NCBI GenBank assembly: GCA_013285465.1
Contig: CP053449.1
Location: 1,445,540 to 1,509,539 of the forward strand
Reading direction: 5' to 3'
Length of the DNA: 64,000 nt
Source of the DNA: Pseudomonadota bacterium
GTDB lineage: Bacteria; Pseudomonadota; Alphaproteobacteria; Micavibrionales; CSBR16-224
Of the stretch, positions 4,808-60,347 are shown piece by piece. The position numbers were made by a program, and so were the translations under genes. The notes below the pieces were generated by a model. The model was not told where the DNA came from and ran no database searches. It was given only the letters and a program-made list of their open reading frames with translations. Position 1 is the stretch's first letter. Each line of letters opens with the position of its first letter.

Positions 4808-5368
4808 ATGGCTGACGACAAGATACTGACGCAAAAATTTCAGGACACGCTGAAAAACCTCCGCAGCAATACGGAGACCTGTGCCGTGCTTGAGAAACTC
4901 AGCGCAGCCCTTAGTGACGTCCAGCAGGCGTTGGCACAGGAAGGTGTCGCCTTTGGCTTTTGCTTTTCACATTACGATACCATCTCTCCCACACTTTCCT
5001 CCGGTCTAAAGCAGAAATCCGATAAAATTCTGGAACGCTCTGTCACAAGGCAATGCGCCGTCACCTACCATATTGACGGGCAGGATTATTCTTTGGCGCT
5101 GGCACGTTTCAATGATACCCATTACCGCACGCATTGGGAATTTATCGGTAGCCACAGCTTTGAAGACCGTTCCAAAGAAAGAGATGACAACTATGATGCC
5201 GTCGTATCCCCAATAGAAAATTTTCGTTTTGATTCTGAGAACGAAAGCGATCCTTTGACCGATCTGAAGAGCTATCTTGTTGAACAGGCCGCAAAACAGA
5301 AATTCCTGCAAGCCTATGATGCAAAAAGCCAGCCGCGCCGTATCAAAAGAACCGCGCGTCCATCGTAA
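4808..5368 (+). CDS. hypothetical protein with basic C-terminus (distant paralog of 7755..8210)
   Basis: 186-aa ORF with ATG start and its own promoter-like element. No recognisable domain. Ends ...SQPRRIKRTARPS. Confidence 0.6.
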   Translation: MADDKILTQKFQDTLKNLRSNTETCAVLEKLSAALSDVQQALAQEGVAFGFCFSHYDTISPTLSSGLKQKSDKILERSVTRQCAVTYHIDGQDYSLALARFNDTHYRTHWEFIGSHSFEDRSKERDDNYDAVVSPIENFRFDSENESDPLTDLKSYLVEQAAKQKFLQAYDAKSQPRRIKRTARPS

Positions 5369-7754: not shown

Positions 7755-8210
7755 ATGCATGACAAAAAGTCTCTGTCGCAAATTTTTGAGACCCATATTC
7801 AAGCGCAGGAAAGCAGCGCATCGCAGAAAGCCTTGAAAATGTTTTTTGCCGCCATGGATAATGTGCGCACGGTTCTGTCCGGGCAAGATATCCCCTTAAC
7901 GGTTGATTTGCATCCCGTTGGTACGGAAAAAAATAACGTGATGCATGATCTGGGCGGCGTTTACGGCAAACCGCTTTATCAGGGCACGGCCAAAATCGGT
8001 GAAACGCTGAGCTTTCCGGTCACATTGTTCGGCGGGTTTACAGGCGAATACGGGGTAAAACTCGGCACGGTCAGCGCGAAAAACTTTACCAATGACGATA
8101 CGATCGGCACTGTTCAGGAACATCTTGTACAGCATGCCGCACGCTATGTCGCTTTGCGGCAGGGTAATCAGACCCAAAAACGGCATCTTGACCGCCGCCA
8201 TGGCCGGTAA
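7755..8210 (+). CDS. hypothetical protein with basic C-terminus (distant paralog of 4808..5368)
   Basis: 151-aa ORF with ATG start. Its N- and C-terminal segments align without gaps to the 4808 product. Ends ...QKRHLDRRHGR. Confidence 0.6.
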   Translation: MHDKKSLSQIFETHIQAQESSASQKALKMFFAAMDNVRTVLSGQDIPLTVDLHPVGTEKNNVMHDLGGVYGKPLYQGTAKIGETLSFPVTLFGGFTGEYGVKLGTVSAKNFTNDDTIGTVQEHLVQHAARYVALRQGNQTQKRHLDRRHGR

Positions 8211-8215
8211 TTGAC

Positions 8216-8923
8216 TTAAGCCGCGTCTTCCAGGGATGTTTTATCGTAAGGAATGATTTTCCCGTCTTTCAGGGTCAGGATACGGTCGGTTTTCTGCGCC
8301 AGCTCCATATTATGGGTGACGATCAGCGCCGCCAGCTGCAATTCCGACACCATGCGCTTCAGCAAGGCAAAGACTTCTCCCGCCGTTTTCGGGTCCAGAT
8401 TCCCAGTCGGCTCATCCGCCAGCAGCAGCACCGGATTATTGGCCAGCGCCCGCGCAATCGCAACACGCTGCTGTTCCCCGCCCGACATTTCCGACGGATA
8501 ATGCCCGCCGCGTTCGGCGATTTTGACCATTTTCAAAAGATCATCGGCATTCTGCCGCGCATCCGCTTTCGGTACACCGGCAATCAGCTGCGGCAATATC
8601 AAATTTTCCTGCGCGGTGAAATCCGACAGCAGATAATGGAATTGATAAATAAAGCCGATTTTTTCACGGCGCAGGCGTGTGCGGGTTTCATCATCCGCAT
8701 GTTGCACAGCCATACCGTCCATATAAATCTCGCCGGATGTCGGACGGTCAAGAATGCCGGCAATCTGTAACAGGGTCGATTTCCCCGCACCGCTGGGTGC
8801 AACCAGCGCAACGCTTTCTCCCGCTTTAATCTCCAGATCGGCACCGGCCAGAATCTCCAGCGTACGACCGCCCTGCACAAAGCTTTTGGTAATATTTTTC
8901 AAAGACAGAATGGCTTTACTCAT
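8216..8923 (-). CDS. lolD: lipoprotein-releasing ABC transporter ATP-binding protein LolD
   Basis: ORF trimmed to ATG 8923 (MSKAILSLKNITKSF), overlapping the lolC stop by 8 nt. Walker A GAGKST, ABC signature SGGEQQRVAIARA, Walker B LLLADEPTG. Confidence 0.92.
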   Translation of the reverse strand: MSKAILSLKNITKSFVQGGRTLEILAGADLEIKAGESVALVAPSGAGKSTLLQIAGILDRPTSGEIYMDGMAVQHADDETRTRLRREKIGFIYQFHYLLSDFTAQENLILPQLIAGVPKADARQNADDLLKMVKIAERGGHYPSEMSGGEQQRVAIARALANNPVLLLADEPTGNLDPKTAGEVFALLKRMVSELQLAALIVTHNMELAQKTDRILTLKDGKIIPYDKTSLEDAA

Positions 8924-10264: not shown

Positions 10265-10714
10265 TTATCCGCGCCCGCGTTTCAGATATTGGCGCAAGGT
10301 TTGATGGCGGTTATCGGCGGTTTGCCGTGCTTCCTCCAGTTTGGGGACATCCGCGGCGCGCACCAGCTCGGCGGGATATTCACGCATAAACATACGAATC
10401 CAGTCGCCCTGTTCTTCAAAGCCCTTCTGAATTCCCGCCCCGTTCAGCGTTGTATGGTCAAACGCGATTTCGCCCTGCCACAGAACCTCTTTTCTGGACG
10501 CATCGTTGAAAACCGTCAGCATATCGCCCTTTTCCAGCGCAATCAGCCCGTCCATACTGCGCTGCCCGTCCGGCCGCTCATATGTTGTATCATAAACAGC
10601 CCAGATGGAATGTGTCATGCCCTGCTCGCAAAAAGCCTCCAGCAGCCCCTCCACAACGGGAACGCCGTATTTTTTCAACGATGTCGGTTTTTTTGATGCT
10701 GTCATAGTCTGCAT
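10265..10714 (-). CDS. hypothetical protein carrying the RHxxLRxYLxRG C-terminal tail (no ANK repeats)
   Basis: 149-aa ORF with ATG start and no recognisable domain. Ends ...ADNRHQTLRQYLKRGRG, the same tail seen on four ANK proteins. Confidence 0.65.
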   Translation of the reverse strand: MQTMTASKKPTSLKKYGVPVVEGLLEAFCEQGMTHSIWAVYDTTYERPDGQRSMDGLIALEKGDMLTVFNDASRKEVLWQGEIAFDHTTLNGAGIQKGFEEQGDWIRMFMREYPAELVRAADVPKLEEARQTADNRHQTLRQYLKRGRG

Positions 10715-12990: not shown

Positions 12991-13019
12991 TTGACACATT
13001 ATGCAAAATATGCTACAAA
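12991..13019 (+). promoter_or_regulatory. sigma70-type promoter candidate for the ANK pair
   Basis: TTGACA (12991..12996), a 17-nt spacer, then TACAAA (13014..13019). Confidence 0.4.
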
Positions 13020-13054
13020 TTTCGCTTACCATTCTTTACCAAAGAGGCAGCGGA

Positions 13055-13756
13055 ATGTCATCCAGTTTGGGCGAAAAACTCATAAATACTGTGGAGAACG
13101 GCGATTTAGACGGCGTGCGCGACCTTGTGTTGAACCATAACGCCCCCGTCAATTACGCCAATGACGGCTGGACACCGCTGATCAAAGCCGCCAGCCGCGG
13201 ATATATGGAGATGGTCCGCTTTCTTATCGAACATGATGCGGATCCCAATCTGCGATCCGGCGACCAGTGGACGCCCCTTTGGGGCGCAATTTCTTCGGAT
13301 CATGACAATCTGGAGGTCGTGGAATATCTGCTGGACAACGGCGCCAATCCGCTCATCACCACAAAAGGAAAAACACCGGAAGCCTATGCGGCGGAAAAGA
13401 ACAAACGCCTCGTCGTCATGGCTTTGAATGAAAGCCTGCGCTGGCAAAAGCTTGGGCCGCACCGTATCCAGAACCACAGTATCGAACCGCTGTTTGAAGT
13501 CACCCGCATTTTCAATTTTAAATCCATGAATGTGATGACGGTTATACAAGACCGTGACCATAAAACGATGAGCCATAGCGAAATGCATTTCTCCAACCCT
13601 GCCGTTGATCTTGAACTTCTACGGGAAGCCAAGGTAGAACTGCTGGAGCGTGGCGGTACACTTGATGACCGCGCCGTCAATGATGCGCTGATCAATTCAC
13701 GTCATGGCCGCCGTTTGCACAATATCTCCCGCCGCGAGGCCAAAAATGGCCGATAA
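13055..13756 (+). CDS. ankyrin-repeat protein with uncharacterised C-terminal module (pair 1, copy a)
   Basis: ORF 13001..13756 trimmed to ATG 13055 (AGAGG SD; MSSSLGEKL). ANK consensus present (DGWTPLIKAASRGYMEMVRFLIEHDADPN, DQWTPL...). C-terminal module ...VTRIFNFKSMNVMTVIQ.... Tail ..RHGRRLHNISRREAKNGR. Confidence 0.85.
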   Translation: MSSSLGEKLINTVENGDLDGVRDLVLNHNAPVNYANDGWTPLIKAASRGYMEMVRFLIEHDADPNLRSGDQWTPLWGAISSDHDNLEVVEYLLDNGANPLITTKGKTPEAYAAEKNKRLVVMALNESLRWQKLGPHRIQNHSIEPLFEVTRIFNFKSMNVMTVIQDRDHKTMSHSEMHFSNPAVDLELLREAKVELLERGGTLDDRAVNDALINSRHGRRLHNISRREAKNGR

Positions 13757-14429
13757 TGCTTATACCGAAGCCTGTAAAAACGGCAATCTGGAGCTTGTCC
13801 GCCGTTATATTCAGGAGGAAGGATGCAGCCCGGATGATTGCGATTCCAAATACTGGACACCGCTGGTCGCCGCTGCCTATCACGGTCATGATGATCTGGT
13901 GGTGTTTTTAATTCAACAAGGTGCCGATCTGAACACGCGTGATGAGAATGACGGCTGGACACCCTTGATTTCCGCCTCCTATAAAGGGCACAGTAAAATC
14001 GTCGAAACGCTTCTTGAACAGGGCGCGGATCAATATCTGCGTGATAAAAAAGGCCGCAATGCCGCCGATCTTGCTGAAAAAGAAGGCCACAGCCGTATCG
14101 GCTTGTTGTTGAAGGCCGCCCGCAAATGGCGGGTTTTGTCCGATGAAAAAATCCAGCATTTCAGTCTGGACGGTGATTTAAGCGTCACCCGCACCTTCAA
14201 TTTCCGCGCCATGAATGTGATGACGGTTGTCAGCAACACGGCAGACAAACTGCAAAGCCATCAGGAAAATGCTTTTTGCGATCCGTCCGTCGATTACGGT
14301 TTACTGCTGGAGGCCAAAGAGGAATTCCTGAAAACAGGCAAAAAAATCGATGAAAGCACTTTCAGTACGGCACTGAAATACCCGCTAAAAACCCGCCCTT
14401 CCCGTACAATTTCCCGCCGAAAAAACTAA
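13746..14429 (+). CDS. ankyrin-repeat protein with uncharacterised C-terminal module (pair 1, copy b)
   Basis: Start ATG 13746 (MADNAYTEACKNGNLELV) overlaps the upstream stop by 11 nt. ANK repeats present (YWTPLVAAAYHGHDDLVVFLIQQGADLN, DGWTPLISASYKGHSKIVETLLEQGAD). C-terminal ..VTRTFNFRAMNVMTVVS... Tail ..SRTISRRKN. Confidence 0.85.
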   Translation: MADNAYTEACKNGNLELVRRYIQEEGCSPDDCDSKYWTPLVAAAYHGHDDLVVFLIQQGADLNTRDENDGWTPLISASYKGHSKIVETLLEQGADQYLRDKKGRNAADLAEKEGHSRIGLLLKAARKWRVLSDEKIQHFSLDGDLSVTRTFNFRAMNVMTVVSNTADKLQSHQENAFCDPSVDYGLLLEAKEEFLKTGKKIDESTFSTALKYPLKTRPSRTISRRKN

Positions 14430-14437
14430 TTTCAGAC

Positions 14438-14467
14438 AAAAAAAGGGCCGCGGCAATGCCGCAGCCC
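14438..14467 (-). terminator. intrinsic terminator downstream of the serpin gene
   Basis: GC-rich 10-bp stem with one mismatch (GGGCCGCGGC/GCCGCAGCCC, 14445..14467). On the minus strand it is followed by a 7-T run (plus-strand A run 14438..14444). Confidence 0.7.
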
Positions 14468-14493
14468 GGGAATTATAGGTCAGGCCTCTTGTC

Positions 14494-15864
14494 TTAACGT
14501 TTCGGGCCTTTTGCAGCCGCTTTCGGCTTCATATCGTTATTCGGTTTGTTTACCGCACCGGCAAACAGAACCGTACCTGTTTTGATGTCTTGCAATGCGA
14601 AGGCAAAAGAACGGTCAAATTTGATGTCAATCCGTTTCGGCGGCATCTGGATGGATGTCGCGCGGATCACGCCGATTGTCGTCACGGCGGCGGCTTCACT
14701 GCCTTCCTCATCGGTTTTGAACACAACATCATGCGTGACTTTGTTCACGGCCAGCTGTTCATTCTTTTCTTCAATCATGGCTTTCAGATCCGCACGGTCT
14801 TCGTCAAACACCGTGTTGATGCCCATTTCTTTCAGAACGGGGATCAGATCATGTTTTTGCTTGATATCCATATGCGGCAGCTCGACCTGACCGATCACGC
14901 GTTCAAACGCATTCGGGTCGGTCCATGCCGGAACCTGGCCATCGGCCTGATCGGACAGCCAGTCGCGTGCGGCATTGCTGTCATCTTTCGGGCGCATCAG
15001 CACCAGACGCATGGTCGGCTCTTTGCCTTCCTTATAGTCCTGCTCACCATAAGTCATGGCAACGGCTTCGTAATCGCCGCCGTCAAGATAGGTGATGTCG
15101 CCTTTTTCGCTGAAGTTTTGCTGCATCATCGGCGTATCCGAGATTGCACCGTCATCCGTTGTAAAGCCGCGATCTTCGGTCAGTGCCTTGTCGAATTTCT
15201 TCGTCCAGTCACCTTTAAAGTAAAGGGCGGAGGCCAGGATGGCGTAATCATCTTTTGTCAGTTTCTCAACGATATTGTCGATCAAACCATTGGTGTTATC
15301 GGATGCCCATTTGTTGATTTTCGCCGGAACCGTGGGGTCGGAAAAACGCTCGCCGTTGATTTCCGCATCGAAGATGTTTTTCAGATCGGCAGCGTAATTG
15401 CCGTTCAATGTCAGAATGTCATCATTCGTCCAGATACCGTTTGCGGTTTTCAGCGTCACTTGCTCTTTATTCGCATCCAGAATTTCCGTGTTTAGCGCAG
15501 CCAGTTTGTCAATTTCAGCGTCCATCGCAGCGGCATCGGTGCCGAACAGCGTTTGCGCCAGCTCTTCCTTGGTCTGACCATTGGCAGCTTTGGACAGCAT
15601 TGATAAAGCCGTCGTTGCGTTATAGGACGACAAAACGAGATTGTCGGATTTGTCATCCTGATGTTTTGCGGCGGCTTTTGCAAAAACCAGCGCCAACTTG
15701 TTCAGCGTGTTGACTTCCGGCTTATATTGGCGGCCGGCCTCATGTTGCGGTTGTCCTTGTCTTGAATCGCGGGGCATTGCGTATCCTTCCTGAATATTCA
15801 AATGAATTGTCAAAATGCTTATAACGGCGCCAAGCGCCAGAATCATGCGTAATTTTCCGGTCAT
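14494..15864 (-). CDS. secreted serpin-family serine protease inhibitor
   Basis: Serpin hallmarks: NLVLSSYNATTALSMLSKAANGQTKEEL, the hinge/RCL EEGSEAAAVTTIGVIRATS, and C-terminal FDRSFAFALQDIKTGTVLFAGAVNKP. The N-terminus is signal-peptide-like (MTGKLRMILALGAVISILT). Start ATG 15864 is preferred; the track uses GTG 15876. Confidence 0.9.
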   Translation of the reverse strand: MTGKLRMILALGAVISILTIHLNIQEGYAMPRDSRQGQPQHEAGRQYKPEVNTLNKLALVFAKAAAKHQDDKSDNLVLSSYNATTALSMLSKAANGQTKEELAQTLFGTDAAAMDAEIDKLAALNTEILDANKEQVTLKTANGIWTNDDILTLNGNYAADLKNIFDAEINGERFSDPTVPAKINKWASDNTNGLIDNIVEKLTKDDYAILASALYFKGDWTKKFDKALTEDRGFTTDDGAISDTPMMQQNFSEKGDITYLDGGDYEAVAMTYGEQDYKEGKEPTMRLVLMRPKDDSNAARDWLSDQADGQVPAWTDPNAFERVIGQVELPHMDIKQKHDLIPVLKEMGINTVFDEDRADLKAMIEEKNEQLAVNKVTHDVVFKTDEEGSEAAAVTTIGVIRATSIQMPPKRIDIKFDRSFAFALQDIKTGTVLFAGAVNKPNNDMKPKAAAKGPKR

Positions 15865-18889: not shown

Positions 18890-19663
18890 ATGACACCTAT
18901 AAACTTTTTCAAACTCCAAGCAAAAAATCTTTTCAAAGATTATAAAACCCAAACACCTTATATTGATGAGGTGAATGGCCGCTCCTACTACAAATACACC
19001 CCCCAATATTTCGATATAGAGCGCATTTCCTTAAAATATGATTGGGATGAAGAAAATTTCAGTCTAATGAAAGCACAGCATCTCTTTGCACTTATGCTCG
19101 GATTTGACAAATGGACACATTTAGTGAAAGCCTCAGATGTAGAATTAGAGCTCACGAAACTATTATGGGACAATCAACATAAAATTTCCTTAGAAGACTG
19201 GCAGATGTATATTGCCAACGTAGAATTCGATAACAGCATTACTCTCAGCACTACGGATGAAATAGAAATCTTGAAACAAGTCTTTATTAATGTGGATGGG
19301 CATCACAACCCTTTTGGAGACTATCGCCTGAAGAAAAACCGACACCGTGTAGCCGAGACACCACAGCAAACACCCACGATCAGCACAGCTCCGCAAATTA
19401 CCTCTCTTCCCTTAGACCAGGCAAATCGTGCAGAATTCATCGAAGCAGCCAACAGAGTTTTTGAAGCCGTCATATGGCGAATGGAACCGAACAACCCGGA
19501 ACAAACACGCAAACTTTGGAACGCAGAAAATTATATTGATAACCTTCTATTGACTGACGATATGCTGCCCATCAGCAAGGACTATGCGCTATCATTGATA
19601 GATGCTTTTTTGGTTCACCATGTCCTTGATCTCGCTGTGCAAGCCGACAAAATGGCGGCATAA
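18890..19663 (+). CDS. hypothetical protein (AT-rich orphan)
   Basis: 257-aa ORF with AAGGA SD 9 nt upstream of the ATG. Composition is more AT-rich than alaS. No domain I can name. Confidence 0.6.
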   Translation: MTPINFFKLQAKNLFKDYKTQTPYIDEVNGRSYYKYTPQYFDIERISLKYDWDEENFSLMKAQHLFALMLGFDKWTHLVKASDVELELTKLLWDNQHKISLEDWQMYIANVEFDNSITLSTTDEIEILKQVFINVDGHHNPFGDYRLKKNRHRVAETPQQTPTISTAPQITSLPLDQANRAEFIEAANRVFEAVIWRMEPNNPEQTRKLWNAENYIDNLLLTDDMLPISKDYALSLIDAFLVHHVLDLAVQADKMAA

Positions 19664-20197: not shown

Positions 20198-20944
20198 ATG
20201 GATCAATGTAAAATGCCGACAAATGCCGGAGAAAATCCCGCCCAGTTCTTTTTGGATGCCGTAAAAAACGGCAGTAAAAGCGGCGTTGAGGCCGCATTGC
20301 AACTTGGCGTGCAGATTGATGCCCCGATCGACGGTGACCTGACGGCGCTGCATATTGCCGTACAGCAACGGGACTATGATATGGTTGTCGAATTGCTGGC
20401 GCAGGGCGCAAATCCCAATATTCCGGACAGTCTCGGCGATACGCCCCTGTTTCTGGCGGCAGGTTACGGCGAAGCCAAAATCCTGACAAAACTGATTGAA
20501 AAAAACGGTGATGCCGATGCATTGAACAGTAGCAAGGCGAATGCCCTGATGCGCGCCGCCTATCACGATCATGCCGAATGCTGCGAAATCCTGCTGAAAC
20601 ACATGAAAACACTGAGCATCGACCATCAGGACAATTCCTACAGCACCGCTGTCATGTGGGCGGTCATCAGCGGACGCACAAAAGCACTGGAAGTGCTGTT
20701 GCAGCACGATCCCGATCTGAGCTTGAAAGACGGGCAAAACCGTACGGCTTTCGGGGTTGCCTCATGGTTCGATATGCTGGATGCCAATAATATGATGATT
20801 GACCATCAGAAAAACAGCCTTGCCGTTGCTGCGAAAGCCGCTTTTTCCGCGCAGGAGGCCGCCGAAAAACAAGCCCGCAACGAAACCCAGACCAGCAACC
20901 GCGTTAACCGTCATGCCGCCTTGCGCAGCTATCTGCGGCGCTGA
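20198..20944 (+). CDS. ankyrin-repeat protein with the LRxYL C-terminal tail
   Basis: 248-aa ORF with 4-5 ANK repeats (LTALHIAVQQRDYDMVVELLAQGANPN, GDTPLFLAAGYGEAKILTKLIEKNGD...). Ends ..NRVNRHAALRSYLRR. Confidence 0.85.
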   Translation: MDQCKMPTNAGENPAQFFLDAVKNGSKSGVEAALQLGVQIDAPIDGDLTALHIAVQQRDYDMVVELLAQGANPNIPDSLGDTPLFLAAGYGEAKILTKLIEKNGDADALNSSKANALMRAAYHDHAECCEILLKHMKTLSIDHQDNSYSTAVMWAVISGRTKALEVLLQHDPDLSLKDGQNRTAFGVASWFDMLDANNMMIDHQKNSLAVAAKAAFSAQEAAEKQARNETQTSNRVNRHAALRSYLRR

Positions 20945-21035: not shown

Positions 21036-21695
21036 ATGGGTGATATCAGTTTTGACTTTTCCAAGGAAGACCGTTTCCGCAAAATAACGTACGGAGCCGG
21101 TCTTGTCGGTGCCGTCGCAACAGGTGTCACAGCAGCTGTGCTTGGCGTTGCCGCAACACCGCTGGCCGCAGCAGGCATGATTGTCGCAGGCGGCGTTGCC
21201 ACGGCCGTTGTCCTGCCTGCAGCCGCAACCGCCGCTTTCGGCCTGCTGTACACCGCCGCAAAAACCGTTGCTGCCGTCGGCAGTTGCCTGACACCTTCCG
21301 GCTTTAAGAAACAGCAATTCTATGCCAAAAATCGCAATCAATCCGTGATCGGACGCATTATCGGCAAAGGCCTGAAAGCCGGGAAAGAAGCCGGCGGTAT
21401 GTCTTTGCTGCTGACAGCCGCTCTTGCGGGAAGTTCGGCCAAAGCCCTCTTCTACACGCCTTTCGTAGAACTGAAACAGGCCATCGGCAATCTCACCTCA
21501 GGTAAAGCCGAAGAGAAACCTGCCGCAACAACGCCTGCGACCCCGAAAGCTGCGGCACCGAAAACAAAAACGCAGAAAAATCTGGGTAAAACGGCAACGG
21601 AAAGCTTTAAGCCCGCGCCGAAAACGGCCAATGACGATCAGGCGCCGAAAACTGCTGCCAAACAGACGAAAAAGCGCGGCGGCCCGAAGAAATAA
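21036..21695 (+). CDS. membrane protein with long bilobed hydrophobic region and Lys/Pro/Ala-rich C-terminus
   Basis: 219-aa ORF with AAGGAG SD. Residues ~20-85 are an almost uninterrupted Ala/Gly/Val/Thr hydrophobic stretch, and there is a second hydrophobic segment (MSLLLTAALAGSS). The C-terminal half is a low-complexity basic tail ending KKRGGPKK. Confidence 0.65.
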   Translation: MGDISFDFSKEDRFRKITYGAGLVGAVATGVTAAVLGVAATPLAAAGMIVAGGVATAVVLPAAATAAFGLLYTAAKTVAAVGSCLTPSGFKKQQFYAKNRNQSVIGRIIGKGLKAGKEAGGMSLLLTAALAGSSAKALFYTPFVELKQAIGNLTSGKAEEKPAATTPATPKAAAPKTKTQKNLGKTATESFKPAPKTANDDQAPKTAAKQTKKRGGPKK

Positions 21696-21767: not shown

Positions 21768-22400
21768 ATGTCCGAATTGCAAAAAACCGTGAATGAGCAT
21801 TTACGCGAAGCCGCGCAAATCGGCAATATCGCACTTATGCAGGACGCTCTGGATAACGGTGCGGAGATTCACCACGATCATGACAGCGCCCTGCAATGGG
21901 TCTGCTATAACGGTCATCGTGAGGCGGCGGAATTTCTGCTGGATAACGGCGCCGATCCGCACGCCGATGGCGGCAAGCCACTCAAACATGCCGCAGAACA
22001 GGGACGCTATAGCATTGTTCTGTTGCTGCTGGAGCGCGGAGCGGCATTCTCCACACTCAGCACGGCCATGCAGGTCAAATATGCCGGAGCTTTAGAAGAA
22101 AGCAAACTGGCGCAGGTTGAAGAACGGTTGAAAAATCCCTATCAGCTTTTCAACGACCATACCGTACTGAAATTTGAAGGCCGCATCCGCGAGATCGGCG
22201 ATCTGCATAAAATTTTTGATTTCTCCGCCCGTACCGTCACACAGATGGTCGGTAAAACCCCGGCAACACCGCTGCTGTTTTCGCAGTTCCGTGACAACCG
22301 TGACGAAATTATGGACGCCTATGATTGGCTGAAATCCCAAGATAAAAACCCTCCCGCCCCCTTCACCGCTGTACAGCGCAAAGTCAGACACAACCGTTAA
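21768..22400 (+). CDS. ankyrin-repeat protein with uncharacterised C-terminal module (pair 2, copy a)
   Basis: 210-aa ORF with ANK repeats (DSALQWVCYNGHREAAEFLLDNGADPH, KPLKHAAEQGRYSIVLLLLERGA). C-terminal NPYQLFNDHTVLKFEG...LHKIFDFSARTVTQMV...AYDWLKSQ. Tail ..QRKVRHNR. Confidence 0.85.
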   Translation: MSELQKTVNEHLREAAQIGNIALMQDALDNGAEIHHDHDSALQWVCYNGHREAAEFLLDNGADPHADGGKPLKHAAEQGRYSIVLLLLERGAAFSTLSTAMQVKYAGALEESKLAQVEERLKNPYQLFNDHTVLKFEGRIREIGDLHKIFDFSARTVTQMVGKTPATPLLFSQFRDNRDEIMDAYDWLKSQDKNPPAPFTAVQRKVRHNR

Positions 22401-22512: not shown

Positions 22513-23136
22513 ATGGATCAACAATCCTTTTGGACTCTGAATCTGGTCAGATATGCCAAAATCGGCGATGTCGAAGGCATTCTCACGGCGCTGGAAAAAG
22601 ACGCGGATATTCATTATCAGGGTGATTCCGCCCTGCAATGGGCCTGTAATAACGGCAATTTTGACGCTGCCAAATGCCTGCTGGAAAACGGTGCCGACCC
22701 GCTTGGTCCCGTGCCGATCAGATGCGCCGCACAAAACGGGCACACCGATATTCTACGGCTGTTGCTGGAATATGGCGCAGACTACACCACCCTGCCCGAA
22801 GAGGAAAAGCTGCGGCATATGGAATTATTGGTCGCCTTTCGAACGGAAAGCAAAGAAAGACGCCTCGCCGACCCCTACCAGATTCTGAATGACAATGTCG
22901 TTGTCAAATTTGAAGGACAGGCGGAAAAACTGGGAGAGCTGTGCAAGATTTTTGACTTTGCCGCCCGCACGGTGACCCAGACTGTCGATAAACACCCTGC
23001 GCATCCTTTGATGTTTGATGATTTCCGCAATAATCGCGGTGAAATTATGGCGGCCTATGACTGGCTGAAAAAGCAGGGGAAGGATGTACCGCATCCCTTT
23101 ATCACCGGCAACACACGCAATATCCGCCGCCGCTGA
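22513..23136 (+). CDS. ankyrin-repeat protein with uncharacterised C-terminal module (pair 2, copy b)
   Basis: 207-aa ORF, roughly half identical by eye to 21768..22400 (DSALQWACNNGNFDAAKCLLENGADP; DPYQILNDNVVVKFEG...LCKIFDFAARTVTQTV...AYDWLKKQ). Tail ..NTRNIRRR. Confidence 0.85.
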   Translation: MDQQSFWTLNLVRYAKIGDVEGILTALEKDADIHYQGDSALQWACNNGNFDAAKCLLENGADPLGPVPIRCAAQNGHTDILRLLLEYGADYTTLPEEEKLRHMELLVAFRTESKERRLADPYQILNDNVVVKFEGQAEKLGELCKIFDFAARTVTQTVDKHPAHPLMFDDFRNNRGEIMAAYDWLKKQGKDVPHPFITGNTRNIRRR

Positions 23137-37916: not shown

Positions 37917-38687
37917 TCAGGGACCGGGGTTCGGATTAGGCCTCTTCGGGGTTTCCCGCGCCGCATCCTTTAACTGCTTTTTTGCGGTTTTCGCAGCCTC
38001 CTTCGCTGCCTTCTTCTGCTGCTTTTCAGCGCGGCGTTCATCATCAAGGCCGTAGCCGAATTCCGCCTTGGAAACCGCACTGAGCTCAGCCCCCGGTGCC
38101 ATGTCCAGAATTTTTTGGCACATAATATCAACCGCGGCAGGATCACCGGATTTCAGCTCCACTTCGATTTCAGAAATCTTCACACGGCGGTCGCTGTCTT
38201 TTGCATGTGTCACCGCACCTTTATCAAAAGCCAGTTCAACGACCCCGACCTCCTCGCCCGCCACCACGACGGGGACGGAGAAATAACGGCGATGCACATC
38301 TGCCGTGAAAATATGGCGCAATTTTTTGCCTTCCAGACCTTCCAGACGCTTTTTTGCCTCTTTGTCGTCAATCAGTGCGAGATCGGGCTCCTGCAGTTTC
38401 TCGCCAAGGACATCCTTGACCTCGACACGGGACATCACGGCTTCATCATCGCCCGCGACTTGATATTTCAAAGTCTGTTCATAGCCGACACCGTCCTTGT
38501 ACTGGACACGCAGCGCCATTTTCTGCTCCTGCAGGCGGTGTTTTTTTGTATCATAATAAGCACGGGGGCGATGTTTGGTTTTCAGCTTGCCGTCGACAGC
38601 GTCTTTGGACAGTTTATTATAAACCGCTTCCATTTCCGCAGGAGAAACGAGGATTTTCTTTTCAATCTCGTGTTCCGTATCAGACAT
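37917..38687 (-). CDS. CYTH (triphosphate tunnel metalloenzyme) domain protein with Lys/Ala-rich C-terminal tail
   Basis: 256-aa ORF with the N-terminal ExExK motif (HEIEKKILV) and later EIEVELKSG strand motifs typical of CYTH. The last ~45 aa are low-complexity (KQQKKAAKEAAKTAKKQLK...NPNPGP). Confidence 0.75.
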   Translation of the reverse strand: MSDTEHEIEKKILVSPAEMEAVYNKLSKDAVDGKLKTKHRPRAYYDTKKHRLQEQKMALRVQYKDGVGYEQTLKYQVAGDDEAVMSRVEVKDVLGEKLQEPDLALIDDKEAKKRLEGLEGKKLRHIFTADVHRRYFSVPVVVAGEEVGVVELAFDKGAVTHAKDSDRRVKISEIEVELKSGDPAAVDIMCQKILDMAPGAELSAVSKAEFGYGLDDERRAEKQQKKAAKEAAKTAKKQLKDAARETPKRPNPNPGP

Positions 38688-44306: not shown

Positions 44307-45026
44307 TTATTTGTGCGGCCCGCGGCCTAAATAATTGCGTAAACGCTGCTGTTTCCGGTTGTTTTCACGTTGCTGTTCGACACGGATATGCGTAATTTGA
44401 TAACTTTCCAGCCACAAATACAGCTGTGTTTCAACGCGTTTGTTTTTTTCTTTTTGCGCAAGTTCCAGCGCCTTTTCAATATGCGGCACCATTTCTTTAT
44501 GCAGATTTCTGTCATCAACTTCTTTTAACAGAACGGTTAAAACATCACGCTTGCCCATTCCGGCGGCGCATTCAATCGCCGTTTTTCCTTCCGCCCCCAT
44601 AGAGGTCAAAGTAATATCCGCCCCCGCATCCAGCAGCAGACGGCAATTTTCAACCTTCCCATACATTGCAGCATGCATCAGCGGCGTATATCCCGTCGCA
44701 TTCTGATGATTGGGGTCGGCTTTGGCCTCCAGCAGGCTTCGGATAATGCCCGGAAAGGCATTCGCCGCACCGAAGATCAGAGCGGTATTACCGAATTTAT
44801 CGGTCAGATCAATCGTTGCGTTATTAGTGACAAAAATTGACACACCGGTATCAAAATCCTGCCCGGCCATAATCATCAGACCGGTCTTGCCTTTATGCGT
44901 GCCTTCACAGCATTTGGCATCGGGGTCCGCACCGCCTTCCAGCGCCGCATAGAGAGCGGAACTGTCGCTGATAATCGCAGCGTTTATCAGTTCCTCATCC
45001 CATGCGTTTTTATAAAATGCGTCCAT
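44307..45026 (-). CDS. ankyrin-repeat protein with LRxYL C-terminal tail, embedded in the miaB-phoH-ybeY operon
   Basis: 239-aa ORF with an AGAGGA SD in the 14-nt gap after the upstream phoH-like stop. ANK repeats present (GNTALIFGAANAFPGIIRSLLEAKADPN, GYTPLMHAAMYGKVENCRLLLDAGAD). Ends ..NRKQQRLRNYLGRGPHK. Confidence 0.85.
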   Translation of the reverse strand: MDAFYKNAWDEELINAAIISDSSALYAALEGGADPDAKCCEGTHKGKTGLMIMAGQDFDTGVSIFVTNNATIDLTDKFGNTALIFGAANAFPGIIRSLLEAKADPNHQNATGYTPLMHAAMYGKVENCRLLLDAGADITLTSMGAEGKTAIECAAGMGKRDVLTVLLKEVDDRNLHKEMVPHIEKALELAQKEKNKRVETQLYLWLESYQITHIRVEQQRENNRKQQRLRNYLGRGPHK

Positions 45027-47734: not shown

Positions 47735-48283
47735 ATGTCAAGCACTCCCCCGACAAGCACCCCATTGGGACAAATGCTGATTGCAGCCGTTGAAGACGGC
47801 GGGAGATTGTGGGAGATCAAAAACCTGATTGATGACGGTGCGCCGCTGAACGAAACAGACACCAAGGGTGATACGGCACTCATCAAAGCCGCTGCCAAAA
47901 ATGATTTTGAGCTGGTCGAGATTTTGTTGAATGCCGGATGCAGTCCGGACACGCCCGACCGCGACGGTAATACCCCGCTGATCCGTACCATTGAGATTAT
48001 CAAAGATGAAAGCAGCGCGCTGAATATTATCTGCGCCTTGATTGACCGCAATGCCGATGTGCTGGCAGTGAATGATCAGGGACATGATGTTATGTATTAC
48101 GCGGATAAATGGAAGGACTTTCATATCGGCATTCATTCTTTTCTGCGCAGCTATTCCAGTAGTATCGCCGCCGACCGCGACACAGCCGATACCGCGTCCG
48201 CCGCCCCCAAGGAACAAAAGCCCGCTTTTGGTGCGCGTCACACGAATTTAAGACAATATATCAAAAGAGGAATGAAAAAATGA
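47735..48283 (+). CDS. ankyrin-repeat protein with LRxYI C-terminal tail
   Basis: 182-aa ORF with ANK repeats (GDTALIKAAAKNDFELVEILLNAGCSPD, GNTPLIRTI...). Ends ..FGARHTNLRQYIKRGMKK. Confidence 0.85.
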   Translation: MSSTPPTSTPLGQMLIAAVEDGGRLWEIKNLIDDGAPLNETDTKGDTALIKAAAKNDFELVEILLNAGCSPDTPDRDGNTPLIRTIEIIKDESSALNIICALIDRNADVLAVNDQGHDVMYYADKWKDFHIGIHSFLRSYSSSIAADRDTADTASAAPKEQKPAFGARHTNLRQYIKRGMKK

Positions 48284-48816
48284 GCACACGCGATCTTGAT
48301 AATGAGTTGCTGGGCGCCATCAAAGATGCCGATTTTGCCAAAATGCAGCAATTACTGGAATGGGGTGCAAATCCCGATGCTGCTGATATGCTGGGTGACA
48401 CCGCGCTGATCTGGGCTGTGCGTGCCCCGATGTTTGCCGATGAGTATGATATGGATGAATTAACCGCTCGCCGTAGTTTCGCTGTCGAAGCTGTCAGACT
48501 GCTGCTGGAAAAAGGCGCAGATATCGACAAACCCAATAACCTGGGGCGCAGCGCCGCTTTTCAGGCCATCATGGACAAAAACATGGCACTGCTGACGGTT
48601 TTTGTCCAGCATGATGCCTCAATGCTGCTGAAAGATACGGCCGGGAATTCCATGGCCCGTTATGCAGAGCTGAGCAATGATGATGCCGTGCTGGAATGCG
48701 TTGAAAAAACCGCAAAGGCACAAATACAGGCTGCAGCATTACGCGCGGAAAAAGTCGAAGCCGTAAAAACGCGCCAGCAAAGCCTGCGCAGCTTTGTCCG
48801 TACACGGAAGATGTAA
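48280..48816 (+). CDS. ankyrin-repeat protein with LRxFV C-terminal tail
   Basis: 178-aa ORF with an ATGA overlap to the upstream ANK gene and an AGAGGA SD. ANK repeats present (GDTALIWAV..., VRLLLEKGADIDKPNNLGRSAAFQAI). Ends ..VKTRQQSLRSFVRTRKM. Confidence 0.85.
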   Translation: MSTRDLDNELLGAIKDADFAKMQQLLEWGANPDAADMLGDTALIWAVRAPMFADEYDMDELTARRSFAVEAVRLLLEKGADIDKPNNLGRSAAFQAIMDKNMALLTVFVQHDASMLLKDTAGNSMARYAELSNDDAVLECVEKTAKAQIQAAALRAEKVEAVKTRQQSLRSFVRTRKM

Positions 48817-53260: not shown

Positions 53261-53431
53261 TTTACATACACCAATAAGCATCCCATAAAATTAGACATTT
53301 TGTGTCTTTTTTTCATTAGCGCTGTTGACATGAAAAATAATTATGGTCAAGAATGAATGTCCGGAAATTTACGGCATCCGGAATATTTAACAATATTCAA
53401 ATTGTTTGATAGAGGTAATGGAGCAGTTAAC

Positions 53432-55009
53432 ATGGCAAAACCGGCGCATAATTACAATGATAAGTTACAGGACCGCAAGGTGCTGGTCGAATGGTTCAAA
53501 CAGGGCTGCGCGGCAAAAGAAGATCTTGTCATCGGCGCAGAGCATGAAAAAATCATTTTTTACAAAGATGATTACGCCATTGTTCCCTATGAAGGCAAGG
53601 ACGGCAAGCCCGGCATTAAAGACTTGCTGGAGCATCTGCGCGACCACCATGACTGGACGCCGTTCTATGAGGATGACAACCTGATCCGTCTTGAGAAAAA
53701 CGGGGCCAGCGTGACATTGGAGCCCGGCGGACAGATCGAATTGTCAGGTGCCGCCCTCCATAATTTGCATGAAGTCGCAAATGAGACAAAAAACCATTTC
53801 AGCGAATTGCTGGAAGCTTGCGAAGCCAACGGCATGGACGTGCTGGGTCTGGGCTATCACCCGACAATGACGCTGGATGACGCACCTTTAATGCCGATGT
53901 CCCGCTTCCAGACATTTTACAATTTCTTCAAATCCAACCATTTCGAAACAGCGCGCAAACTGATGGTCGCGACCAGTTCGACACAGGTCAATCTCGGCTA
54001 TAGCAGCGAAGACGACATGGTCAAGAAACTGCGCGTCGGCCTGTCCCTGCAGCCCATCGCTTCCGCGATTTTTGCCAACTCCCCTTTTGAAGACGGCAAA
54101 CTCTCCGACAGCGCCAGCACCCGCAGCCGCATCACTCATAATGCTGCCGACGGGCGCTACGGCTTTATGATGCCGGTCGCCTTCGAAGATGATTTCGGTT
54201 TTGAACGCTATACGGATTTCATATTGAACGAAATGCCGGTCTTTGGTATCTATCACAATGACCATTTCATGTGGATTGAGAAACCCGTCTCCTTCATGGA
54301 TTGTGTCAATGGCCCCATTCCCGGCCTTGAAGAGCAGCATGACATGACTCTCAATGACTGGTTCAACCATATCAACACAATCTGGCCCGAAGTGCGTATG
54401 CGCCAATGGCTGGAGATGCGCGGCTGTGATGTCGGCTCGTCGGAAGATATGATCAATGCCCTGCCCGCTTTCTGGGTCGGTCTGCTCTATGATGACGAAG
54501 CGCTGGACAAGGCCTATGATTTGATTAAGGACTGGACGGCGGAAGATCGTGAATTTCTGCGTACCCGCACACCGGAAGACGGATTGCAAACCCCGTTCAA
54601 AGGCGGCACGGTACAGGATATCGCAAAAAAACTCGTCGAACTGGCCGAGCTGGGCCTGCGTAACCGCAATATCCAGAACGAGGACGGCGTGCATGAAGGT
54701 GTCTATCTGAAACCGCTGCGCGACATTGTCGATACCGGCCTGACACAATCCGATGTCATGAAGAAAAAATACGAAAATGAATGGGACAAGGATATCAGCC
54801 ATGTCTTCAATGAGTTTTCTTTTGGAGCGCATCAGCGCAAACATGCGCGGGAAATGATGGCAGGCGCAGACCGCGCCGCCGCTTCCAAAACCTGCCCGGG
54901 AGCAGACCGCAAGGACTGGAAAAAAGCCGCGGAAAAACGCGCAGATAATGAAAACAAACAAATGCCGCCGCGCAGACCGCCGCAGAGCGGTGCCCGCACG
55001 GGCAAATAA
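53432..55009 (+). CDS. gshA: glutamate--cysteine ligase, plant/alphaproteobacterial type (GCS2), with 61-aa basic C-terminal extension
   Basis: ORF 53357..55009 trimmed to ATG 53432 (GAGGTAATGGAG upstream). Sequence blocks GAEHEKIIF and VTLEPGGQIELSGA. The canonical end ..DISHVFNEFSF is followed by an extra tail. Confidence 0.88.
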   Translation: MAKPAHNYNDKLQDRKVLVEWFKQGCAAKEDLVIGAEHEKIIFYKDDYAIVPYEGKDGKPGIKDLLEHLRDHHDWTPFYEDDNLIRLEKNGASVTLEPGGQIELSGAALHNLHEVANETKNHFSELLEACEANGMDVLGLGYHPTMTLDDAPLMPMSRFQTFYNFFKSNHFETARKLMVATSSTQVNLGYSSEDDMVKKLRVGLSLQPIASAIFANSPFEDGKLSDSASTRSRITHNAADGRYGFMMPVAFEDDFGFERYTDFILNEMPVFGIYHNDHFMWIEKPVSFMDCVNGPIPGLEEQHDMTLNDWFNHINTIWPEVRMRQWLEMRGCDVGSSEDMINALPAFWVGLLYDDEALDKAYDLIKDWTAEDREFLRTRTPEDGLQTPFKGGTVQDIAKKLVELAELGLRNRNIQNEDGVHEGVYLKPLRDIVDTGLTQSDVMKKKYENEWDKDISHVFNEFSFGAHQRKHAREMMAGADRAAASKTCPGADRKDWKKAAEKRADNENKQMPPRRPPQSGARTGK

Positions 55010-55196: not shown

Positions 55197-56027
55197 ATGA
55201 CAGACAGCAAGTTAAGTGAAGAAAAAATCAGCGAAACAGCTGACGAAGCGGCAACGGATGCCCCGGCGGAAGAAGAGCTTCCCCTCTCTTTTTGCCATGC
55301 CTGCATGACTCCGTTCGAGGATTATTATTACCTCGGTGAAAAATACGGCTTTACGCTTGTCGGTTGCCTGAAATGCGGCAGCGCGGTTGCCGACCCCTAC
55401 CCCACTGCCGAATTCATGGAGAAATTCCATGAAAAATATAATGAAAAACTTGTGCCGCCAAGCAATCCCGAGCGGGAAAACAAGCGCTATGAAAAACGTA
55501 TTCGCACCTTGACCGCCCTGACCAAGGGAACGGATTTTTTGGCTGTCGGATGCGGTTTCGGCTATTCCGTGATTGCCGCCGCTTCGCTTGATCTTGAAGC
55601 CTTCGGCATTGATACGCGCGAACAGCCGATCAAAACGGCAAAGAAAAACCTTAGCAAAGATCATTTCGAACAGACCACGCTTGAAAAATACGCCAAAAAG
55701 GGCAAGCAGGCTGATATTGTCTATATCGAACACGGGCTTGAACAGTCCGTCGACCCGAATGCCTTTATTGAGGCGTTGAAAAAAGTACTGAAACCCGGCG
55801 GTGTGGTTTACCTGGAAACACCGGATGGCAATCATTTTACGATCCCGTCAAATTTTGCACGCTGGAAAGTTGTTACCCCGCCTGCGGTTCTGCATTATTT
55901 TTCCCGCAAAGGTATCGAAGCGCTGCTGGACCGTCACGGGTTGAAAGTCGAAAAATTCTTTTTCAGCCTCCGCCCGCGTATGCGGCTGATTGCCAAAGCC
56001 GCGTCTAAAAAAGCGGATAAAAAATAA
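55197..56027 (+). CDS. class I SAM-dependent methyltransferase with N-terminal Cys4 zinc-ribbon-like motif
   Basis: 276-aa ORF with CHAC...CLKC near the N-terminus, SAM motif I FLAVGCGFGYS and post-I/II motifs. Confidence 0.78.
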   Translation: MTDSKLSEEKISETADEAATDAPAEEELPLSFCHACMTPFEDYYYLGEKYGFTLVGCLKCGSAVADPYPTAEFMEKFHEKYNEKLVPPSNPERENKRYEKRIRTLTALTKGTDFLAVGCGFGYSVIAAASLDLEAFGIDTREQPIKTAKKNLSKDHFEQTTLEKYAKKGKQADIVYIEHGLEQSVDPNAFIEALKKVLKPGGVVYLETPDGNHFTIPSNFARWKVVTPPAVLHYFSRKGIEALLDRHGLKVEKFFFSLRPRMRLIAKAASKKADKK

Positions 56028-58181: not shown

Positions 58182-60347
58182 ATGACGACAGAAAACGAGA
58201 AGCCGACTCCCTCTATAGTTTTTCATGCCGACAAGCCTATCCAATCCGTACAAGAAGACCGTTTGGGTTTTTCTCCCATTGCCGACAATCTAGCAACGTC
58301 GATTCTAAAGATGAATGCCGATGGCGGATTTGTTATCGGGATTGAAGGGCCATGGGGGTGTGGGAAATCAAGCATCCTAAATTTGCTTTGTGCAAAAATA
58401 AAAGACGAGCAAAATATATCGATTATCAAGTTCTCCCCGTGGATTATCGGCGATAAAGATAGCATGGTATCTTCTTTAGCGGAAGAACTGTCAGAGGCCA
58501 TAAAAAAAACAGGACAGCAAAACGAAAACCTTGCGAAAAAAATGAAAAAATACGGTAAGGCGGGGATAAAAAAAATCGCGCCATGGGCAGCATTAATTCC
58601 AACATATGGTGAGAATGCAAAGGAATTGTCCGATTTGCTTTCTGGCTCATTAACTGACCTTAAAGATGAACTGACGAGAGCTTTGCAAGCTATTAAGCAA
58701 ACTTTTGTCGTTATCATTGATGATCTTGACCGCCTTGAACCGGAGGAAGCCTTAGAGATCACGCGCTTGATCCGTGCAGTAGGTGACTTCCCAAACGTAA
58801 TATACATCCTCTGCTACGACAAAGAAATTTTATCTAAAAGCTTGGAAACTGCCCTCCATATTAAAGATGGAAACGCTTTCTTACAAAAAATTGTTCAAGC
58901 TAGTTTCTCCGTACCGAAACCAGAAGAATTTGACCTGCGAAACTGGATGAATAAAGAATGTCAGCTGCTTTACGAAGAGGTTACTGGCAAAAGCTTACCC
59001 GATAATCTCTCAAGCCGGTTACAAGAGGTTTGTTATACACATGGCGGAAAAATAGAAACGCCCAGAGAAATTAATTTAATTCTTAACTCATTAAAGCTGG
59101 CTTATCCGCCCATCTCTGAAAAGGTGGATTTCCCAGACCTATGCTGGCTTCATCTCGAAAAAATTAAGAATGATGCCTTTTATAGATGGATAGAAAACTA
59201 TTTAAATGCATTCTCAGTTGTTGTGCGCGGTGAAGGTCATCTGAATGGAGCTGGACAGGCAAAGATGACGCAAGAACTTTTAAAACATTTGCAGATTACA
59301 GATGATATAGAAAAACAATCAGCCATGCATACCATCATAAACCTATCAGAACATATCCCAGGGATAGATTATGTGTGGGGAGACGATAAAACGCTCGTCA
59401 TGACAAAGCCTACAGATGAAGAACTCTCAGCTTTAGAAAGAGGCCATAGACTAGGAAGTCCCTCACATTATCGCCTCTATTTCTCATTCGCCCAGCCTGC
59501 TGGAACGCTAGACGAATCCGAGCTATCTGCTATTATCAACAAAGCTAACAATAAAACACTTCATGCAGACGATTTTAATAAGTTTATTTATGCAAAGCGT
59601 TCTCAAGGAGGAACGATGTATTCCGTTCTTCTTGACAGACTAAATAGAACCCCTGTGGAGGTATTCACATCAGATGGTTGCGTAACACTTCTACAAGTCA
59701 TTGCGGAGAGTATTGACGATGCCAGACGCGAGGAAAAAGACGATGAGGCGCATTTTAAGATAGGAATCGGTGAAATTGGTAATAAGCTGTTTCAGAAGCT
59801 GCTACCTCTAATAGACCAAAAAACAACTTTTTTACAAGATTTTTTCACGAGCGGTGCTTCCGTAGGCTGGCTTGTTTCAAGCGTAATTGGAAACGAAATC
59901 TTTGCACATGGGAAAAGCGGACTCGCCAAGAAAGGGCAGCCCAGTCTTACAACAGAGGAACTAGAAGGTGCTATTCAAATCATCAATGAACGCCTTACTA
60001 GCACCGATCGCGATAAAATAGAATCTGTCCCAGACGCTCTTTCCTTCTTCTATAGATGGCAACAATCTGGGGACGATGGGGCAAAGAACTTAAAAGAGTG
60101 GATGGATGAAATCTCCGTCACAGATGCTGGTTTCCTCGAATTACTGGAAAAATGCAGAGGATATGTCGTGAGCACAAACGGAAATTATCGCCCTCTTAAC
60201 GAACGGGAATTAACACAGCTTTTCGGAAATTCTAAAGAGATTCTGGACAGAGTTCGAAACATCGCCTGCAATTTACAAAATGAGCCAGACTTAATAAAGC
60301 AAGCAGAAGAACTCATAGAGGCACATAAAATGGCACGAGACTTCTAA
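58182..60347 (+). CDS. KAP-family P-loop NTPase (soluble, no TM insert)
   Basis: 721-aa ORF with Walker A GIEGPWGCGKSS, Walker B VVIIDDLDRLEPEEALEI and the following IYILCYD block typical of KAP NTPases. Long helical C-terminal region. More AT-rich than its flanks. Confidence 0.82.
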   Translation: MTTENEKPTPSIVFHADKPIQSVQEDRLGFSPIADNLATSILKMNADGGFVIGIEGPWGCGKSSILNLLCAKIKDEQNISIIKFSPWIIGDKDSMVSSLAEELSEAIKKTGQQNENLAKKMKKYGKAGIKKIAPWAALIPTYGENAKELSDLLSGSLTDLKDELTRALQAIKQTFVVIIDDLDRLEPEEALEITRLIRAVGDFPNVIYILCYDKEILSKSLETALHIKDGNAFLQKIVQASFSVPKPEEFDLRNWMNKECQLLYEEVTGKSLPDNLSSRLQEVCYTHGGKIETPREINLILNSLKLAYPPISEKVDFPDLCWLHLEKIKNDAFYRWIENYLNAFSVVVRGEGHLNGAGQAKMTQELLKHLQITDDIEKQSAMHTIINLSEHIPGIDYVWGDDKTLVMTKPTDEELSALERGHRLGSPSHYRLYFSFAQPAGTLDESELSAIINKANNKTLHADDFNKFIYAKRSQGGTMYSVLLDRLNRTPVEVFTSDGCVTLLQVIAESIDDARREEKDDEAHFKIGIGEIGNKLFQKLLPLIDQKTTFLQDFFTSGASVGWLVSSVIGNEIFAHGKSGLAKKGQPSLTTEELEGAIQIINERLTSTDRDKIESVPDALSFFYRWQQSGDDGAKNLKEWMDEISVTDAGFLELLEKCRGYVVSTNGNYRPLNERELTQLFGNSKEILDRVRNIACNLQNEPDLIKQAEELIEAHKMARDF

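Follow-up and report, generated by a model that had tools for sequence, protein, structure and literature searches.

Five otherwise dissimilar proteins encoded in a 64,000-nucleotide stretch of chromosome from an uncultured alphaproteobacterium of marine or saline settings (assembly GCA_013285465.1, contig CP053449.1, positions 1,445,540 to 1,509,539; the whole of this stretch is called the window below) end in one and the same short basic peptide. Its pattern, [RK]-[HQ]-x-x-L-R-x-[YF]-[LIV], forms the C-terminal end of all five open reading frames (ORFs), with the stop codon following 2–6 residues further on. Here, we establish the motif itself, its position, the selection that acts on it, its portability between unrelated proteins and its apparent restriction to one clade. 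The sequences are best explained by a short linear motif that is specific to this lineage, basic and about 12 residues long, with the consensus [NT]-R-[HQ]-x-x-L-R-x-[YF]-[LIVM]-[KR]-[RGT]; it is probably a tag by which the carriers dock on one cellular machine that they share, which may be a protein-export system. That a receptor binds the tail, and which receptor this would be, we infer from these properties.

Four of the carriers are ankyrin-repeat (ANK) proteins. Two of them are encoded by adjacent genes on the forward strand: a protein of 182 residues (47735..48283; Pfam Ank_2, E=4.6e-11) that ends in ARHTNLRQYIKRGMKK, its motif RHTNLRQYI (48236..48262) being followed by 6 residues and the stop, and a protein of 178 residues (48280..48816; Ank_4, E=2.2e-8) that ends in TRQQSLRSFVRTRKM, with RQQSLRSFV (48772..48798) followed by 5 residues and the stop. 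The stop codon of the first gene overlaps the start codon of the second in an ATGA at 48280–48283, which suggests that the pair is co-transcribed and translationally coupled. The third ANK carrier, of 239 residues, lies on the reverse strand (44307..45026; Ank_2, E=9.8e-21), is flanked on both sides by PhoH-like genes and ends in RKQQRLRNYLGRGPHK, where 6 residues separate KQQRLRNYL (44328..44354) from the stop. The fourth, of 248 residues (20198..20944, forward strand; Ank_2, E=1.8e-38), ends in NRHAALRSYLRR, and its motif RHAALRSYL (20909..20935) comes closest to the end of its protein, only 2 residues before the stop. The fifth carrier has no ANK repeats: it is a protein of 149 residues encoded on the reverse strand (10265..10714), with proS and lolC as co-oriented neighbors on its two sides, and consists of an unannotated beta-rich domain and a C-terminal helix ending in NRHQTLRQYLKRGRG, with RHQTLRQYL (10283..10309) 5 residues from the stop. 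Pfam gathering cut-offs for ANK repeats (Ank_2 or Ank_4) are passed by four of the five carriers and by four further neighbours. Among the ANK carriers BLASTP finds at most 29–32% identity, in the repeat region only, and never aligns the tails, so that the earlier description of four dissimilar ANK proteins plus one of another kind agrees with both searches.

The motif is far more frequent in the window than composition predicts, and it sits in one place. A six-frame scan with the regular expression [RK][HQ]..LR.[YF][LIVM] gave six matches, all six within 8 residues of a stop codon, and five of these are the genes described above. When the residues within every called protein were shuffled 2000 times, the mean expectation was 0.0185 matches anywhere and 0.002 in the C-terminal 20-mers, against five real matches in the window proteins. 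The codons of the core vary from copy to copy, with four distinct Leu-Arg pairs (TTA AGA, CTG CGC, TTA CGC and TTG CGC), and the conservation thus acts at the level of the protein and does not stem from repeated DNA or from the in-frame reading of a terminator. Within housekeeping genes, the core LRx[YF][LIV] occurs a single time, internally in CorC (DLRHYLRN, 151 residues before the stop), and it was found at no housekeeping C-terminus in the window. The earlier note on this DNA had claimed a strictly C-terminal motif on five ORFs, encoded by differing codons and missing from the ends of housekeeping proteins; the translations read exactly as it gave them, and each of these claims held. The sixth match, RQVSLRLYL followed by one Arg and a stop (21499–21525, reverse strand), lies in a 27-codon frame antisense to an orphan gene (21036–21695) and is probably due to chance.

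In each of the five tails, the final 12 residues are rich in Arg and Lys and contain no Asp or Glu, such that the count of Lys and Arg equals the net charge of +4 to +5. Over the same length, the mean net charge is 2.58 for the ANK and orphan proteins and 0.34 for the housekeeping proteins (Mann–Whitney p=0.0005), and Arg-rich tails are present on all 9 ANK proteins of the window as well as on several orphans. No hydrophobic or transmembrane stretch was found in the last 30 residues of the carriers, and no N-terminal signal peptide was seen when their sequences were inspected by eye. Near the carriers, a Sec-type N-terminus occurs only on a serpin and on an ANK-like lipoprotein of 529 residues on a related contig (L014), both of which are without the motif.

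How strongly the tail is conserved is clearest for the ANK protein at 20198–20944, whose family is the best sampled, with 7 species-level clusters and identities down to 44%. All of its orthologues end in RH[AT]ALRxYLRR. Mean pairwise identity is 0.91 in the tail (the last 11 residues), 0.47 in the 36-residue linker and 0.69 in the ANK body, and of the 11 columns in the tail, 9 do not vary. When the window is compared with the lineage of L008 and L022, AlaS and ProS are 83–88% identical and this ANK protein 45%, with 10 of its 11 final residues unchanged. On the evidence of these alignments, it is a quickly evolving protein with a frozen tail, and the motif is under strong selection. The 149-residue family behaves alike, as NRHxxLRxYLKRGRG is kept up to the stop in five clusters. 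Its gene keeps the order proS-X-lolC-lolD in lineages of 33%, 45% and 52% GC, and the distant orthologues at this locus in the 45% and 33% GC lineages retain the tail, ending in NKHRALRKYMKRGRAS and NRHQNLRRYLKNHKK (a tandem pair, L023) and in FRKYIKAR. The gene is vertically inherited.

The motif is found on three unrelated N-terminal parts: ANK repeats, the beta-rich domain of the 149-residue protein and, in sister species, an orphan family of 151 residues. For the beta-rich domain, a profile of the 149-residue family retrieved 239 remote homologues from a library of 1.84 billion representatives. Most of these measure 100–130 residues and stop just past the domain without a tail, which identifies the tail as an add-on in this clade. 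The Pfam and NCBIfam search with the carrier gave no match, and neither a model in these collections nor a PDB fold match was found for its domain, making it a candidate new domain family. The domain is found on its own, as tandem copies in a single protein and, in one case (P0066), joined to ANK repeats. The orphan of 151 residues (7755..8210, forward strand) is unrelated to the 149-residue family (hhalign probability 0.1). Its sister-species orthologues end in SH[AT]NLR[KR]F[NH]RRN, and relative to two of them (L018, 3479–3946; L020, 8099–8566) exactly five residues, NLR[KR]F, are missing from the window copy, which by this comparison may be a natural loss-of-tag allele.

Looser basic tails accompany the strict motif on other proteins of the window, all of them on the forward strand. 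Two ANK proteins recognized by Pfam and encoded in tandem end in RHGRRLHNISRREAKNGR (13001..13756; RHGRR[LM][HR]x[IL]SRR in orthologues) and in TRPSRTISRRKN (13704..14429; R-x-[ILV]-[SP]-R-R-K in orthologues, with SLRQIPRRK as the tail of the L008 orthologue). Two further Pfam-supported ANK proteins, which are paralogues of one another, end in QRKVRHNR (21768..22400) and TRNIRRR (22513..23136), and R[KN][VI]R..R is a conserved looser pattern among the ANK orthologue tails. In an orphan of 186 residues (4808..5368), orthologue comparison shows PRRIKR to be conserved close to the C-terminus. The earlier note had listed degenerate Arg-rich tails on four other ANK proteins and two small orphans; these are confirmed and, moreover, kept among orthologues. 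Its view of the tail as a portable module is borne out by the three unrelated domain types that carry the motif under selection at the protein level, and its view that the tail marks accessory rather than housekeeping proteins by the nature of the carriers and by the charge difference given above.

Basic C-terminal extensions of low complexity also occur on several housekeeping enzymes, with ends such as PPRRPPQSGARTGK and AASKKADKK. Examples are RimK (6449–7351), a GCS2 protein (53357–55009), a methyltransferase (55197–56027) and a CYTH protein (37917–38687). These extensions, which may be a lineage-wide habit, are mostly rich in Lys and not in Arg, and they raise the background for any argument based on charged tails. 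To the left of the window, on L025, a large orphan (13992–15860, reverse strand; 581 residues as called in the database, 622 as the longest ORF) ends in TRQHVIRRRNTNSR, an Arg-rich tail with a hydrophobic pair.

AlphaFold2 (AF2) models place the motif on a helix in both families that were modeled. In the model of the 149-residue protein, a single long helix (residues 120–147) comes after a beta-rich core and runs through the motif, with block means of the predicted local distance difference test (pLDDT) of 87, 71 and 67. For the ANK protein at 20198–20944 (mean pLDDT 85.7), the model is a canonical ANK solenoid that superposes on DARPins and gankyrin (E ~1e-9) and is followed by two long helices, the last of which (218–247) contains the motif at pLDDT 75–81. 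The linkers of the carriers are rich in Ala, Glu, Gln and Lys and are not conserved. The models thus suggest a picture of a docking peptide on a hydrophilic helical spacer, in which the Leu, the Tyr or Phe and the final aliphatic residue of the core may share one face.

The tag appears to be confined to one uncultured alphaproteobacterial clade, as far as sequence searches reach. The window belongs to a closed metagenome-assembled genome (MAG) of 2.67 Mb (proteins QKK054xx, locus tag HND56_), the same proteins are present by exact sequence match on the draft assembly GCA_016743515.1, and assemblies from Logan, JGI, ENA and Tara contain additional copies. The relatives are MAGs labelled "Alphaproteobacteria bacterium", and one is the isolate CSBr16_224, which we take from its name to come from soda-lake brine. 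Among the related MAGs are GCA_016743515.1, SBHI01, SKHU01 and JGI Ga0187647_1000011. A homology search with the ANK protein at 20198–20944 retrieved orthologues that are all tailed and generic ANK proteins of other organisms that are not, and it retrieved no paralogues elsewhere in the genome. A search with a profile of the tail alone found nothing at E<=10 in a database of 5.8 billion proteins, for which 12 residues carry too few bits. A degenerate DNA scan for N-R-H-x-x-L-R-x-Y-L-[KR]-R had 0 matches in viral contigs and 104 in metagenome contigs, and a single one of the latter is a genuine C-terminal tag (L052, a clade orthologue), so that the strict motif is not widespread. The other metagenome matches are junk frames or the internal NRHYRLRNYL of an unrelated enzyme family. 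This widespread family (L027, L049, L056, L100 and others) has NRHYRLRNYL[SN]RN about 215 residues before its C-terminus, and the peptide pattern is therefore diagnostic only when anchored at the C-terminus.

Among the closest known signals are those of VirB/D4 type IVA secretion, such as the tails of VirE2, VirE3 and VirF of Agrobacterium, the Beps of Bartonella and RalF and RARP-2 of Rickettsia. Like the tails described here, these lie at the extreme C-terminus, within the last 20–50 residues, and are hydrophilic, net positive and Arg-rich; they are portable across unrelated effector domains, and their carriers include ANK proteins without Sec signals. What sets the present tails apart is that their consensus is fixed, with a core, L-R-x-aromatic-aliphatic, that does not vary and is predicted to be helical. 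Positively charged C-terminal tails are reportedly (Vergunst et al., 2005) what is recognized in the substrates of alphaproteobacterial type IV secretion systems (T4SS). The tails of RalF and RARP-2 bind RvhD4 (PMC11077975).

No known signal is an exact match. The five tails, Arg/Lys-rich and free of acidic residues over their last 12 positions, do not match the Dot/Icm type IVB signal. That signal consists of a Glu-rich E-block, a small or hydrophobic residue at position −3 or −4 and an acidic or polar tail. The uncleaved C-terminal signal of type I secretion, used by Rickettsiales substrates, is poor in Lys, His, Pro, Met, Trp and Cys and often has an acidic and hydrophobic end, and it is likewise rejected for tails that are rich in Lys, Arg and His and have ends of Lys, Arg or Gly or rich in His. 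A twin-arginine translocation (Tat) signal, for which S/T-R-R-x-F-L-K stands at the N-terminus ahead of a hydrophobic region, can be dismissed as the tails lack RRx[FY][LIV]K and occupy the wrong end of the protein. The bacterial beta-clamp motif (QL[SD]LF or QLxLx[LF]) is met in 0 of 11 tails, and the AlkB homologue 2 PCNA-interacting motif (APIM) was excluded by regular expression on the tails. PEP-CTERM, GlyGly-CTERM, LPXTG and the C-terminal domain of type IX secretion resemble the motif as lineage-restricted C-terminal signatures on many unrelated proteins of one genome, but they involve a transmembrane helix or a domain of 80–100 residues on Sec-exported proteins, in contrast to about 12 polar residues without a signal peptide; the three sorting tags, in which a signature motif precedes a transmembrane helix and a basic cluster, are rejected on the missing hydrophobic stretch and signal peptide. 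All PDB sequences were searched with a tail profile, which gave no meaningful match, and literature searches on the motif strings and on the XB motif of SspB found nothing useful. The motif itself seems undescribed, even though a basic C-terminal recognition peptide as such is already known.

What would read such a tail? We favor a tethered docking peptide that a long, hydrophilic and poorly conserved C-terminal helix carries at its free end and that one common receptor would read. The Leu, the aromatic and the aliphatic residue would form one hydrophobic face for this contact, and the invariant Arg together with His or Gln would provide specificity. Our preferred candidate for the receptor is an ATPase that recognizes the substrates of a one-step protein translocation system, as the coupling protein of a T4SS does; in that case, the ANK and orphan proteins would be cargo for export, and the tails of the looser type R-x-[ILV]-x-R-R would be weaker forms of the same signal. 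We propose this identity of the receptor tentatively, holding it with somewhat less than even confidence. The export reading is favored by the combination of C-terminal, Arg-rich and portable tails on signal-less, eukaryote-like and fast-evolving proteins, and by nearby Sec-type proteins that do without the tail. Both ANK proteins and serpins are eukaryote-like and typical of host-interacting bacteria. We regard the secretion tag proposed in the earlier note as plausible in this sense.

Several observations weigh against export. The published VirB/D4 spacing R-x7-R-x-R-x-R is found by regular expression in 0 of 11 tails, and known T4SS signals are usually compositional and not a fixed helical motif. 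No secretion genes, of a T4SS, a type I system or any other, were found in the window and 10 kb on each side. The ANK genes do not form islands but are dispersed among housekeeping genes in conserved synteny. Furthermore, the 149-residue carrier is inherited vertically and stays syntenic and co-oriented with proS and lolCD from 33 to 52% GC, and a conserved role inside the bacterium would suit it no less than that of an effector. Its vertical inheritance and synteny make an intrabacterial receptor a serious alternative.

In such an alternative, the tail would act inside the bacterium and serve an AAA+ machine as a tether or degron, in the way of the SspB XB motif or of MuA, and the carriers would be adaptors or regulated substrates of ClpXP. 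The XB motif of SspB (ALRVVK at the very end of the protein, after a flexible linker) docks on the N-domain of ClpX, a zinc-binding domain, and MuA ends in the basic ClpX signal RRKKAI. As in SspB, a domain is followed here by a variable, hydrophilic linker and a short peptide of L-R-hydrophobic-hydrophobic-K/R at the extreme C-terminus, and XB tethers its protein to a hexameric ATPase, as the tail might. The age of the 149-residue gene, which is syntenic, vertically inherited and next to housekeeping genes in deep lineages, also speaks for a tether of this kind, as does the conserved, non-island synteny of the ANK genes. Yet XB has neither the aromatic residue nor the R-[HQ] upstream, with His or Gln four residues before the core, and it binds as a beta-strand, at odds with the helix of the AF2 models; the present tails, moreover, are carried by multiple ANK proteins and not by one adaptor. 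We know of no precedent for ClpXP adaptors with ANK repeats, and a literature search on an alphaproteobacterial XB motif gave nothing usable. We consider this tether unlikely, although worth keeping in view. A broader version, in which the ANK and orphan proteins would be unexported modular adaptors whose variable domain binds a client while the shared tail tethers them to a hexameric ATPase such as ClpX, strikes us as very doubtful.

Alternatively, the tail could act in a host cell after delivery, by docking on the sliding clamp PCNA in the manner of a PCNA-interacting protein (PIP) box or by targeting its protein to the nucleus or nucleolus. The PIP-boxes of archaea and eukaryotes are usually C-terminal with basic flanks, and the carriers are eukaryote-like ANK proteins. 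If the PIP pattern is relaxed to [QH]-x-x-[ILMV]-x-x-[FYW]-[aliphatic], each of the five tails matches it, at the very end of the protein, between basic flanking residues and with polar, aliphatic and aromatic positions spaced as in a PIP-box (1, 4, 7 and 8). The canonical box, Q-x-x-[ILM]-x-x-[FY]-[FY], is nevertheless absent from all five: His predominates at position 1, an aliphatic residue always takes the place of the aromatic at position 8, and PIP-boxes have nothing to match the invariant Arg that comes next to Leu, at position 5. The nuclear localization signal (NLS) that the earlier note had offered as another possibility is weak, as the monopartite form K[KR]x[KR] occurs in one tail out of five. 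Strict C-terminal placement in every family would not be required on the host side, and the profile search against PDB sequences found nothing. A host-acting motif is thus, to our minds, an improbable reading, and a non-specific electrostatic anchor, that is, a cationic amphipathic helix on anionic membranes or nucleic acids, a decidedly improbable one. For the latter, the tails do have a charge of +3 to +4 over 11 residues, a hydrophobic moment of 0.36–0.61 and a charge-driven HeliQuest-type discriminant of 1.5–1.9, above the threshold of 1.34, and many proteins of the genome have basic C-terminal extensions. On the other side, the mean hydrophobicity of 0.01–0.11, against 0.46 for the membrane helix of FtsA, is so low that membrane insertion is unlikely; with regard to a membrane-targeting helix of the MinD/FtsA type, which is C-terminal and amphipathic with one strongly hydrophobic face, these values point both ways. 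The invariance of H/Q, L-R and Y/F across families at 45% overall identity also exceeds what charge and amphipathicity would need. That chance, an in-frame DNA-level repeat (a terminator or mobile element) or mis-called ORFs produced the motif has next to no probability left: one of the six regular-expression matches is a short antisense frame and most metagenome DNA matches are junk or internal, but the low shuffled expectation and the differing codons speak to the contrary, and the genes were called independently in NCBI, JGI and Logan assemblies, with orthologues that have the same tails. Codon differences, shuffling and orthologues together rule out an origin by chance, DNA repeat or terminator.

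Should the docking peptide indeed be an export tag, it would be the first of a consensus type and would make the effector repertoire of the clade readable by regular expression. In alphaproteobacterial T4SS, the signals on the substrates lie in their composition and are difficult to predict. With a fixed, strongly conserved 12-residue consensus on unrelated domains, the cargo set could be listed by pattern search, and a single peptide would suffice to identify the receptor, either in a pull-down or in a predicted structure of the complex. Should the receptor be intrabacterial instead, a new class of tethered adaptors would be defined, and if the carriers were unexported adaptors, bacteria would have an ankyrin-based system of targeted proteolysis or remodeling. 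The motif also draws attention to a poorly known, ANK-rich and serpin-encoding clade that probably interacts with other cells and whose members come from anammox-type reactors, soda-lake brine and marine samples.

The window is an otherwise ordinary piece of alphaproteobacterial chromosome, with rpoBC, ribosomal protein genes, proS, alaS, lolCD, miaB-phoH-ybeY-corC, accBC, dapDE and ccrM, and ANK proteins make up 9 of its approximately 57 genes. Next to the tandem ANK pair at 13001–14429 lies the serpin gene (PF00079; 14494–15876, reverse strand), whose product has a signal-peptide-like N-terminus and is kept at 78–97% identity in every related locus. Serpins are uncommon in bacteria. An orphan of 257 residues (18890–19663, forward strand) stands where the JGI contig L014 encodes the 529-residue lipoprotein-like protein (7913–9502), which has weak ANK matches; the neighbors are otherwise identical, a strain-level replacement. 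The GC content, about 52% elsewhere, drops to 41% in the stretch that holds a gene for a KAP-family P-loop NTPase (58182–60347, forward strand), which is probably a defense-type gene acquired horizontally. To the left of the window, tldD is followed by a GmrSD_N protein and a HEPN (RiboL-PSP) protein (L025, 11509–13118). Finally, the window must derive from the closed assembly, since the two draft contigs of GCA_016743515.1 that cover this part, RBMU01000001.1 and RBMU01000009.1, both end inside rnhB (RNase HII), at about 56.0–56.7 kb of the window.

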